Under the pieces are notes generated by a model. The model saw only the letters and a list, made by a program, of their open reading frames with translations. It had not been told where the DNA came from and searched no databases. Both the position numbers and the translations under genes were made by a program. Of a DNA stretch of 64,000 bases, positions 7,009 through 7,300 are shown in pieces. Position 1 is the stretch's first letter. The number at the start of each line of letters is the position of its first letter. Location: the NCBI GenBank assembly GCA_045606665.1, contig JAZUSI010000064.1, positions 7,627-71,626 of the forward strand. Reading direction: 5' to 3'. This stretch comes from Christensenellaceae bacterium. Its GTDB lineage: Bacteria > Bacillota > Clostridia > Christensenellales > Borkfalkiaceae.

Positions 7009-7300
7009 AGAAACGACCTGCAACGCAGTTCATAAATCTTAAAGTATTTAAGGGGTTAGAAACGAGTTAGGCTAGACTCGTGCAAATGAGCAGACTTGAT
7101 AGACCGTCTGGTCATCAAGGTTGTGAGTTTGCACAGAAACGACGCATAACGATGTTTATAAGCTCTTAAAGTATTTAAGGGATTAGAAACGAGCAATACA
7201 AGGCTCGCAAAGGGTTTTGGGTGAGATAGAACGTCTGTTCATCGAAGTCAAAACGCTTTGCAGTAAACACAGTATTGCGAAGTTTATAAGACCTTAAAAG
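7009..7300. repeat. 127-nt tandem repeat (about 2.3 units) directly downstream of groEL
   Basis: Conserved blocks AGAAACGA and TCTTAAAGTATTTAAGGGNTTAGAAACGAG recur with a period of 127 nt (7038/7165 and 7056/7183). The last partial unit overlaps the groEL stop codon. Confidence 0.85.

Follow-up and report, generated by a model that had tools for sequence, protein, structure and literature searches.

An array of hairpin units downstream of groEL, probably copies of an undescribed dispersed repeat of gut Clostridia

The region following groEL in a Christensenellaceae genome contains two complete units of about 125 nt and one remnant, located between the groEL stop codon and a bidirectional terminator. 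The units belong to a previously undescribed, hairpin-forming, non-coding repeat family of uncultured gut Clostridia. The best explanation, to which we assign a probability of roughly 0.6, is that three copies (two intact and one internally deleted) of a new dispersed hairpin repeat resembling ERIC and MITE elements were acquired independently and make up the array. Positions refer to the window, i.e. the whole 64-kb stretch of DNA that was analysed; no further copies of the family were found in it.

Based on the ORF list, the C-termini of homologues and the loci of relatives, the host gene groEL occupies positions 7294–8916 on the minus strand, with its stop codon TAA (TTA on the plus strand) at 7294–7296. 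Unit C (7174–7298, plus strand) directly adjoins groEL, folds into a complete hairpin and matches the covariance model over its full length with 127.1 bits. Its outer helix P1 is formed by 7174–7182 and 7290–7298, the box helix by TTAGAAAC (7183–7190) and GTTTATAA (7282–7289), and the helix P2 by GCAATAC/GTATTGC. The right end of unit C holds the groEL stop codon and the last codon TTT. Unit B (7047–7170, plus strand, 111.5 bits) is likewise a complete hairpin, with P1 at 7047–7055/7162–7170, the box helix at 7056–7063/7154–7161 and a P2 of GTTAGGC/GCATAAC that includes a G·A mismatch; its core type differs from that of unit C. Spacers GTA, read from the sequence, lie between units B and C (7171–7173) and between units A and B (7044–7046). 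Unit A (7007–7043, plus strand) is an internally deleted remnant of 37 nt, recognised by reading the sequence and comparing it with the full units; it scores under the thresholds of nhmmer and the covariance model. Its order is TTAGAAACGAC, CTGCAAC, GCAG, a degenerate right box GTTCATAA (7028–7035) and the P1′ strand ATCTTAAA, where CTGCAAC is the P2′ strand of a type seen at loci L140 and L117. Unit A looks like a unit that was deleted between its two internal AGAAACGA direct repeats.

A preliminary description of this DNA had proposed a 127-nt repeat with units at 7009, 7136 and 7263. Location and spacing are supported by direct repeats 126–128 nt apart that a repeat search detects at 7037–7080/7164–7207 (84%), 7137–7170/7265–7298 (74%) and 7009–7035/7135–7161 (74%), but the frame starting at 7009 has to be given up, the natural register being that of the hairpin unit. 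The overlap of the repeat with the groEL stop codon was described correctly, while the unit placed there was wrongly taken as partial: the groEL-proximal unit is complete and the incomplete one is the distal unit A. The copies have diverged too far for Tandem Repeats Finder to call the array. The ends of units B and C are 91% identical and their cores 52%. The "linkers" of the preliminary description are indeed nearly identical, but they are the termini of neighbouring copies (a right terminus, GTA and the next left terminus), and the "divergent hairpins" between them are different core types of the family. The palindrome CTTAAAGTATTTAAG is present in the linker, although it merely represents two adjacent outer-helix strands. 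The helices GTTAGGC/GCATAAC versus GCAATAC/GTATTGC and TGCAAA/TTTGCA versus CAAAGGGTTTT/AAAACGCTTTG, as well as the apical hairpin GATAGACCGTCTGGTCATC versus GATAGAACGTCTGTTCATC, all appear when either strand is folded to minimum free energy. The folds have z-scores of −7.9 and −11.5, and none of 100 shuffles folds as well. The 37-nt junction GTTTATAA-P1′-GTA-P1-TTAGAAAC looks like a CRISPR repeat. CRISPR arrays have repeats of 23–50 nt, unique unstructured spacers of similar length and cas genes. Here the "spacers" are conserved hairpins of 90 nt, most copies of the family are solitary and there is no cas gene near, and a CRISPR array was rejected.

Each copy of the family is a single long imperfect hairpin of 37 pairs. 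The outer helix P1 has 8–10 bp and is followed by the conserved box helix, which contains a G·A mismatch in 79 of the 97 distinct copies. Above it there is a purine-rich 2×3 internal loop and the variable 7-bp helix P2, then a conserved asymmetric loop (AGGCUCG / CAGUAAACGCAG), the variable helix P3 and an apical stem-loop. P1 and the box helices close the hairpin, the ends pairing as terminal inverted repeats. The conserved helix ends in AAC (5′ strand) and GTT (3′ strand). An internal AACG, always 13 nt away from the right box, produces a pseudo-dyad about P2. Complete covariance-model matches span 115–133 nt, mostly 124–127 nt; G+C content is 0.26–0.47 in most copies and reaches 0.60. For the 97 distinct copies, 91.5% of the cells are paired as compared to 65.8% after shuffling, and the covariation score is 0.566 versus 0.162, with a maximum of 0.135 in slid controls. 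Covariation is seen at 36 of the 37 pairs in these copies, which agrees with the earlier claim that the helices are rewritten in a compensatory way, and 26 of the 37 pairs are compensated in a separate alignment of 26 sequences.

The family is represented by more than 90 distinct copies outside this locus, in Christensenellaceae MAGs, Clostridium sp. CAG:508 and related gut Clostridia. There are 18 true matches in Christensenellaceae/Clostridia MAGs (about seven of which are no more than 300 nt away from the end of a contig), at least 120 metagenome loci with 83 distinct cores, and 99 covariance model matches. Host genes include groEL, gap, gdh, nusG, rplJ, rplE, rplN, rplF, infA, queA and genes of aminoacyl-tRNA synthetases; the ribosomal protein gene neighbours stand in their usual operons. 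Near-identical cores are present behind three different genes of MAG JAZNFN01. Although solitary copies prevail, tandem arrays of heterologous units are common. At gathering score, Rfam 15 identifies only rRNA and M-box in the whole window and nothing in the array; at E-values up to 10 there are only weak matches to the terminator (6941–7045). Known ribozymes, riboswitches and ribosomal protein leaders were ruled out, having no Rfam match, and the literature search turned up no report of such a repeat. The suggestion in the preliminary description that this might be a new repeat family is therefore borne out. A phage or plasmid origin was also rejected, as there was no match in IMG/VR contigs, PLSDB or INPHARED.

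The regular period of 126–128 nt and the near-identical junctions would be expected if the groEL 3′UTR had been duplicated locally and had then diverged. This explanation is refuted, in line with the doubt already expressed in the preliminary description. The 52% identity between the cores of B and C is close to the family median of 45% for random pairs, i.e. the two cores are as unlike as random family members. For each, closer relatives exist elsewhere, at different loci and in different genomes: the core of unit C is 98% identical to the single groEL unit of L148, 84% to L023 and 80% to a copy at the queA locus, and that of unit B is 97% identical to the groEL-proximal unit of L145 and 75% to the copy behind queA in L099. 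Copies at other loci thus resemble each unit more than its neighbour does, and the array is not a local duplication. Moreover, in related strains a B-type or a C-type unit alone directly adjoins groEL.

The number of units varies between strains. In the sampled relatives, the groEL loci carry no, one, or at least two units of differing type, and loci with 97–99% GroEL identity carry different arrays. The arrays differ between L145 and L146 even though the GroEL protein is identical, and the groEL site of L155 (92% GroEL identity) is empty. The unit of L149 is a chimera of two types in which the P2 strands do not pair. Similarly, L029, L081 and L118 carry the element at the rplE–rpsN junction, which is empty in L130. 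It seems that loci swap core types but keep a P1 of their own. On the other hand, the element is kept at the same junctions (rplJ–rplL, rplE–rpsN and queA) across species-level divergence. This retention outlasts the usual persistence of decaying selfish copies and counts against the mobile-repeat reading.

Scanning the sense strand of the host gene for terminators gives a strong one behind the array (−17.3 kcal/mol) and none ahead of it. This intrinsic terminator (6946–6987, minus strand) has a 16-bp stem at 6952–6987, a perfect 16-nt inverted repeat, followed by a T-run on the minus strand. It is likely the 3′ end of the groESL transcript and, since it is located downstream of the array, the array would be co-transcribed as part of the groESL 3′UTR; transcription ending before the array, which the preliminary description had considered, finds no support. 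No T-run follows unit B or unit C on either strand, and the units were rejected as intrinsic terminators. Terminator 6952–6987 also ends a convergent plus-strand remnant gene.

The preliminary description had also considered an array of small RNAs, which here would be antisense to groEL with one RNA per hairpin. The plus strand folds better, and purine-rich internal loops with G·A pairs are typical of structured RNAs. Such an array is nevertheless very improbable: there is no promoter-like site on the plus strand between 6952–6987 and the array, and transcription of this strand from upstream meets the terminator first. No unit has a terminator of its own, and most copies are inside operons or abut an opposite-strand coding sequence.

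Regarding the position relative to genes, the element terminus is usually on, or supplies, the stop codon of the convergent gene. One terminus coincides with such a stop codon in 56 of 92 distinct copies (groEL, gap, gdh and ribosomal protein genes being examples). Of the 58 loci with an upstream ORF of at least 60 aa, 55 have the stop codon inside the outer helix, at −15 to +3 nt relative to the box. GroEL encoded here ends with ...AGGMGF*, and 115 of the 120 closest homologues end with ...GMY*, nearly all of them with ...GGMGGMY*. GGMGF in this genome stands in place of the ancestral GGMGGMY. At queA and rplE one P1 strand is native coding sequence and the other strand covaries with it between species; in queA, the non-coding P1 strand follows codon changes (TTG/CAA versus TTC/GAA). 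A partly locus-specific P1 is not predicted by ordinary cut-and-paste transposition and hints at host-level selection or templated correction of quasi-palindromes.

These observations bring up the possibility that the element is a host-selected cis-acting RNA module at stop codons of highly expressed genes and at ribosomal operon junctions, serving mRNA 3′-end stability, processing or the coupling of decay to termination, with spread by duplication being secondary. Location of the stop codon inside the outer helix and covariation of the non-coding P1 strand with the codons of queA fit this explanation, as do the position upstream of the terminator and the fact that several species retain the element at identical junctions. 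High expression in well-studied bacteria is known for most of the host genes, and ERIC offers a precedent for orientation-dependent effects on mRNA (PMC2229807). We consider such a module unlikely. Usually the element is oriented so that the strand in the mRNA is the one that folds worse, with a mean of −33.7 kcal/mol versus −40.8 kcal/mol for the other strand; the strand antisense to the host folds better in 64 of 67 copies, and also in the units here. This is not what an mRNA module predicts. In the structural alignment, the strand antisense to the host has 82 G·U pairs versus 39 A·C mismatches, and 123 G·A/A·G versus 27 C·U/U·C, while the G·U counts in individual minimum-free-energy folds (137 versus 128) give no strand signal. 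In addition, about 10 copies are in the opposite orientation inside the same operons, the content of the groEL locus differs at identical GroEL, and one relative has no unit. As to the proposal in the preliminary description that the array is a processing or stability module specifically of groESL mRNA, it is not supported, in view of this turnover and of the presence of the same element behind dozens of unrelated genes.

Strand asymmetry is also found with DNA energy parameters (−26.1 and −26.7 versus −15.7 and −19.0 kcal/mol) and is present in every helix. Another possibility is that the element is a recombination site acting as folded single-stranded DNA (attC-like or HUH/Y1); here the antisense strand would be mobilised and the arrays would grow gene-proximally like integron cassettes at attI. 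In integrons, an attC site starts on or close to the stop codon of the ORF before it, arrays gain new units at the proximal end, and the bottom strand, antisense to the ORF, folds better. Our family has several attC-like properties: a length of about 125 nt, a conserved base below a variable top, structure kept as the sequence diverges, AAC...GTT at the paired base together with the internal AACG and the pseudo-dyad around P2, and a better-folding strand that is C-rich and antisense to the preceding ORF. The seeming exchange of core types between loci with a locus-specific P1 would also fit. However, comparison with the consensus shows that only the AAC/GTT triplets of RYYYAAC/GTTRRRY agree with the boxes. 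P2 is not conserved in sequence and lacks a conserved L box, and the outer helix extends beyond the R-box analogue. Gene cassettes, an integrase (intI) or an HUH gene are absent from all fetched loci, the hosts are essential housekeeping genes and operon junctions, and both orientations occur in a single operon. The correlation with GC skew is inseparable from gene direction, i.e. replication and transcription orientation are confounded. Altogether we regard a recombination site of this kind as improbable. A broader idea, speculative and in our view unlikely, is that the element goes beyond one more DDE-type MITE and is a strand-specific module drawing on the host's last codons and stop codon for its outermost helix. 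It could be (a) an attC-like single-stranded DNA site, a non-coding "cassette" homing to gene ends, or (b) an RNA device exploited by the host and opened by the terminating ribosome. If (b) is true, the fate of the mRNA would depend on how translation ends, both in highly expressed genes and in the ribosomal protein operons of abundant human gut Clostridia.

Under the preferred reading of a mobile hairpin repeat, new copies would enter at the gene-proximal end and push older ones outward, where these may decay. Such proximal entry would build tandem arrays of unrelated units with common termini. The hairpin would be preserved because the element's own propagation needs it: a putative enzyme could recognise the folded single-stranded form, of which the strand antisense to the host folds better. 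A transposase or a parent insertion sequence with matching ends was found neither in approximately 0.95 Mb of fetched loci, searched for box pairs 400–3500 nt apart with inverted flanks, nor among 38 window ORFs identified by scan, translation or the annotation of relatives (26 others, mostly at 36–57 kb, were left out). No clear target-site duplication was found; many termini begin with TA(A), and the outer-helix ends are TT, TA, CT or AT. Direct duplication is indistinguishable from helix extension here because the target sequences themselves are palindromic. SaPI-like integration at the groEL 3′ end with att scars was considered and rejected: the 417-aa neighbour is an Fe-ADH family protein rather than an integrase.

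Bacterial MITEs are shorter than 200 bp, A+T-rich and have terminal inverted repeats, the 5′ end pairing with the 3′ end (PMC2229807). The new family is of the same kind as the MITEs ERIC, RUP and Correia in its length of less than 200 bp, A+T-richness, lack of coding potential (stop codons stand at the terminus in the mRNA sense) and terminal inverted repeats that pair into a stem-loop. The many dispersed copies with near-identical cores and the filled and empty sites, such as groEL in L155 and rplE–rpsN in L130, are also MITE-like. ERIC (IRU/RU-1) is similar in size, with 127 bp as compared to 124–127 nt, and it too is dispersed, non-coding and closed into one hairpin by its ends; it is co-transcribed with flanking genes and affects mRNA stability in an orientation-dependent way (PMC2229807). 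In contrast to this likeness there is no sequence similarity (blastn with 11-nt words against 5,426 complete E. coli genomes gave no match), and the host phylum is different. Our family also differs in that its termini show no clear TA duplication, its outer helix is partly locus-specific and may include coding sequence, and its tandem arrays of heterologous units are common. De Gregorio and colleagues reportedly observed in 2005 that ERICs overlapping or adjoining stop codons prefer one orientation and that insertion duplicates TA.

REPs stabilise the upstream mRNA, and translation is affected by those lying up to about 15 nt from a stop codon. Like REP, BIME and REPIN sequences, our elements are extragenic palindromes located after stop codons and between operon genes, occur in clusters or arrays, and persist for a long time. 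REPs with RAYT need the hairpin for recognition by a single-strand DNA enzyme, and the same may apply to the new family. No RAYT gene was seen among the 38 identified window ORFs; the fetched loci were screened for repeat-bounded IS-sized elements only. REPs are G+C-rich palindromes of 20–40 nt with a GTAG or CGTC tag (PMC3733652); the new elements are about 125 nt long and A+T-rich, have no tag and share the conserved ends TTAGAAAC.../...GTTTATAA. If ERIC and REP are taken as a guide, the array might act as a stable 3′ hairpin at the stop codon, which could alter mRNA decay or translation termination events; any such effect on groESL mRNA is entirely inferred. RUP and BOX of Streptococcus pneumoniae and Correia/NEMIS of Neisseria are MITEs of about 100–155 bp with terminal inverted repeats, many intergenic copies and hairpin transcripts (PMC2229807). 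They have no known sequence similarity to the new family, and no report describes any of them as stop-codon-centred elements with a conserved mismatched inner helix. Unlike in our family, a parent can be recognised for RUP from the terminal inverted repeats of IS630-Spn1, and RUP targets TA; Correia carries an IHF site. Resemblances to type III toxin–antitoxin, parS and dif were dismissed as a poor fit to the defining features.

The ERIC/REP type of element is thereby extended to a new part of the Firmicutes. Its more than 90 covarying copies constitute a natural data set on why hairpin repeats gather at stop codons, and on the strand and enzyme involved. The element stands at the ends of core, mostly highly expressed genes, several ribosomal protein operon junctions included, and changes protein C-termini, for example GroEL GGMGF versus GGMGGMY. 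Variation from strain to strain could serve as a typing marker. It is important to note that the element breaks assemblies, contig breaks coinciding with copies. The family is common in prevalent uncultured Clostridia of human and ruminant gut, and ribosomal protein L5 of the CAG:508 host is found on at least approximately 1,000 contigs.

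On the minus strand of the window, the array fills 300 nt between the stop codon of groEL (7294-8916; groES lies at 8930-9214, also minus) and a perfect 16-bp terminator hairpin flanked on either side by T-runs (6952-6987), which is the sole terminator-like site that a terminator scan reports within 6400-7500. A repeat search recovered direct repeats at 126-128 nt spacing exactly where the preliminary description had placed a 127-nt repeat, and that observation is correct, far beyond chance. Tandem Repeats Finder did not call the array in the window because the copies are too divergent. 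The minus-strand array folds at −95.1 kcal/mol (z −7.9 against shuffled sequence) and the plus strand at −121.2 kcal/mol (z −11.5); all helices proposed earlier are present in the computed folds of both strands. More specifically, each unit is on the plus strand one long hairpin whose ends are mutual inverted repeats, TTTAAGGGrTTAGAAAC ... GTTTATAAGnnCTTAAA, and neighbouring units are joined by GTA. What had been taken for a conserved linker is therefore two adjacent element termini. The gene-proximal unit C (7174-7298, plus) is complete and holds the groEL stop codon, and unit B (7047-7170, plus) is also complete. Unit A (7007-7043, plus) retains a box, one strand of the variable helix (P2'), a degenerate right box and the distal strand of the outer helix (P1') only; by its sequence it looks like a deletion product between the two AGAAACGA direct repeats present in every unit.

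On the plus strand each unit contains a conserved AAC-G motif as two direct copies, e.g. at 7058-7066 and 7135-7143 in unit B (AGAAACGA twice) and at 7185-7193 and 7263-7270 in unit C (AGAAACGA and GTAAACAC). The first sits inside the left box; the second stands at a constant distance of 13 nt ahead of the right box. Each is followed by one P2 strand, giving a pseudo-dyad. The right box is predicted to be able to pair locally with the internal AAC-G copy, which would allow an alternative conformation.

The hairpin is conserved as a structure. RNAalifold predicted 37 pairs from 26 copies, 26 of them with compensatory changes, and the covariance model derived from these aligned copies, run over 0.5 Mb, found 99 copies (97 distinct). 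In the covariance-model alignment 36 of the 37 pairs covary, standard pairs occupy 91.5% of cells as compared to 65.8% after shuffling, and the covariation score is 0.566 versus 0.162 shuffled and at most 0.135 with partners slid by 1-3 columns. Being fitted to the model, this alignment favours the structure, but the margin is still large and the MAFFT-only alignment agrees. The conserved box helix covaries as well (AAAC/GTTT to TTAC/GTAA, TTGC/GCAA and AAGC/GCTT), and its G.A mismatch is retained in 79 of the 97 copies. Rfam holds no match to the element, and the earlier suggestion of a new structure-constrained repeat family is borne out by these 97 copies and 36 covarying pairs.

The family is dispersed. 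The left terminus, searched as an exact pattern in 185,579 species genomes, gave 24 loci; the 18 true copies among them all come from Christensenellaceae or 'Clostridia bacterium' gut MAGs, and about 7 of the 18 lie less than 300 nt from a contig end, as is expected because the repeat is multi-copy. A wider family was revealed when metagenome contigs were scanned with the two inner boxes only: at least 120 loci, with 83 distinct cores (the divergent inner part of a unit) among the matches listed. Conserved throughout are TTAGAAAC(G/A)AG and CGA(A/C)GTTTATAA; the outer helix depends on the locus (TTTAAGGGG/CCCTTAAA, TAAAATTAA/TTAATTTTA, TGTTTGTTT/AACAAACA or TTCCGCCGA/TCGGCGGAA). One of the carrier lineages is Clostridium sp. 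CAG:508, which is very prevalent in the human gut and has copies at several ribosomal protein operon junctions. The element was absent from the IMG/VR viral contigs, plasmids, phages and E. coli genomes searched.

Two kinds of smaller repeats accompany the element in these loci of relatives and metagenomes (L-numbers). In Christensenellaceae MAGs a second hairpin repeat of about 45 nt, with a consensus near GCACCGACGGGCGTGTACTTTTTATACGTAACCGTTGGTGCTTTGATGTTTAA, adjoins or nests in copies of the main element (L003 1650-1810 and 3720-3905; L010 2030-2127; L016 1-170; L006 3008-3130). Short fragments with the left arm only (TTTAAGGGATTAGAAACGAG + 7 nt + AGGCTC...), repeated in tandem about every 40-51 nt, occur gene-distal of full units (L005 6421-6490; L008 2778-2830; L014 about 5990-6060, reverse; L017 2580-2616; L021 1184-1310) and may be decayed older copies or slippage products between two AGAAACGA motifs.

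The best-supported reading is that the element is a new bacterial interspersed hairpin repeat of the ERIC/REP/MITE kind. Such repeats are shorter than 200 bp, A+T-rich, bear terminal inverted repeats and can fold end to end; the 127-bp ERIC affects mRNA stability depending on its orientation (PMC2229807). No transposase or parent insertion sequence was found in the fetched loci or among the identified ORFs of the window. Tandem arrays would arise by repeated entry at one gene end, and chimeras and mini-copies by unequal recombination between units.

Comparison of the units agrees with the earlier argument that the array is not a duplicated UTR. Units B and C are 91% identical at the ends and only 52% in the cores, against a family median of 45% for all pairs of cores, and both have nearer relatives at other loci. 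The lone groEL unit of L148 shares 98% identity with unit C, which matches a copy from L023 at 84% and one downstream of queA at 80%. For unit B the figures are 97% with the unit nearest groEL in L145 and 75% with a queA-locus copy of L099. In one MAG, near-identical cores lie downstream of three genes that are unrelated (L008, L017, L022), which points to recent copying.

Among close relatives the arrays differ. L145 (GroEL 99% identical to that of the window) has a B-type unit right after TAA, then a fragment and a third unit, while L146 and L147, with the same GroEL protein, have a different unit and a mini-copy. One C-type unit follows groEL in L148 (98%). L149 and L150 (97%) carry one chimeric unit, B-type in its 5' half (mRNA sense) and of another type in its 3' half, and its P2 strands do not pair. 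L151 (95%) has one unit with a different outer helix, CTAAAAAG, stop codon included; in L155 and L157 (92%) there is no unit, just a terminator. Gain, loss and recombination of the element are therefore much faster than change of the gene. The GroEL C-terminus is GMY* in 115 of the 120 closest homologues, nearly always GGMGGMY*, and GGMGF* in the window and four close relatives. In the window a C-type unit stands between groEL and the B-type unit; in L145, where GGMGGMY is intact, the B-type unit is directly beside the gene. This order fits a gene-proximal insertion with loss of the last codons, a sequence of events that we infer.

In the interval between the array and Fe-ADH, an XRE-type HTH gene at 6716-6929 (+) is apparently broken by a 1-nt frameshift into a 28-aa ORF and a 41-aa ORF, the latter matching HTH_19; a 42-aa hydrophobic ORF (6567-6695, −) adjoins it. 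The segment is missing from L145 and L149, and L148 has a BNR-repeat gene in its place, so the region 3' of groEL is a variable spot.

The element usually sits at gene ends. Among the 58 loci whose upstream ORF has 60 aa or more, 55 have the box TTATAAAC, read in the sense of the adjacent gene, at −15 to +3 nt from the stop codon. In a census of 92 distinct full-length covariance-model copies, 56 adjoin a convergent stop codon; those without one are mostly inner array units or at contig ends. About 10 of the 92 have the opposite orientation within operons (ribosomal-protein operons where checked), most of them ending 3-50 nt ahead of the next start codon. De Gregorio et al. reportedly found in 2005 that stop-codon-overlapping ERICs favour one orientation. 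By translation, the hosts include groEL, gap, gdh, carB, glnA, tyrS, proS, hslU, queA, typA, nusG, rplJ, rplE, rplN, rplF, rplW, rpsQ, rpmC and infA, genes which we take to be highly expressed. The proposal that the array is a groESL-specific module is probably wrong. About 20 loci outside operons have a terminator after the array.

The S10-spc operon region holds up to four copies in 9 kb (L029, L081, L118, L130; CAG:508 relatives), located after rplN, rplE, rplF, infA, rpsQ and rpmC; species differ in the junctions that are filled and in the orientation of the copies there. At rplF-rplR, L081 has a short box-like remnant and L130 is empty. The database L5 protein P0121 has 249 aa instead of the usual 179 and could reflect a gene call past the usual stop.

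The outer helix P1 can include coding sequence, and this fits least well with a plain MITE. At rplE-rpsN the gene-side strand AAAATTAA (codons K/Q, N, stop) is native coding sequence, found also at the empty L130 site, and its complement on the distal side, TTAATTTTA, occurs in filled sites only. At queA, P1 is made from the three final codons, and where these differ between species the distal strand changes with them (CAA with TTG, GAA with TTC). P1 spans 8-10 bp; TA is not a uniform feature of its ends, and a clear target-site duplication was not found. Three origins are candidates: duplication of a palindromic A+T-rich target, microhomology-mediated integration, and later selection or quasi-palindrome templated correction. 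This covariation of P1 with coding sequence, together with retention of the element at orthologous junctions, keeps alive a reading in which the element serves a host function.

The two strands of the interspersed repeat are not equivalent. Of 67 representative copies, 64 fold better on the strand antisense to the usual host gene (−40.8 versus −33.7 kcal/mol), and with DNA energy parameters both window units show the same, with −26.1 and −26.7 versus −15.7 and −19.0. In the structural alignment the antisense strand has 82 G.U pairs against 39 of the complementary type A.C, 123 G.A/A.G mismatches against 27 C.U/U.C, counts slightly biased by a covariance model built in that orientation, and purines at 67% of unpaired positions. 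All five helices have at least as many G.U as A.C pairs and more G.A/A.G than C.U/U.C mismatches. Firmicute coding strands are usually purine-rich, so a purine-rich element strand antisense to the host would run against the local composition. Selection would then act on the antisense strand in its folded form, whether single-stranded DNA or, in the minority orientation, RNA. An attC-like single-strand mechanism is kept alive by this asymmetry and by the AAC...GTT pseudo-dyad. An antisense sRNA from the plus strand of the array is unlikely here: no promoter-like plus-strand site was found between the terminator at 6952-6987 and the array, and that terminator would halt transcription arriving from upstream. 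Orientation goes with local GC skew in 51 of 57 cases, a count confounded with gene direction. The plus-strand GC skew of the window is −0.13, consistent with a leading minus strand.

At the end of the window the groESL strand carries the 5S rRNA gene and the 3' portion of the 23S rRNA gene (63135-63251 and 63463-64000, −), and elsewhere an M-box (Mg2+) riboswitch (40362-40520, +) precedes a 453-aa ORF (40604-41965). The strongest tandem repeat of the window (60992-61216; 48-nt period, 4.7 copies) is coding: the ORF at 60988-61233 (minus) gives an 80-aa product of 16-aa repeats that matches a Pfam 5-fold beta-flower family (Bflower_2, E 7e-19).
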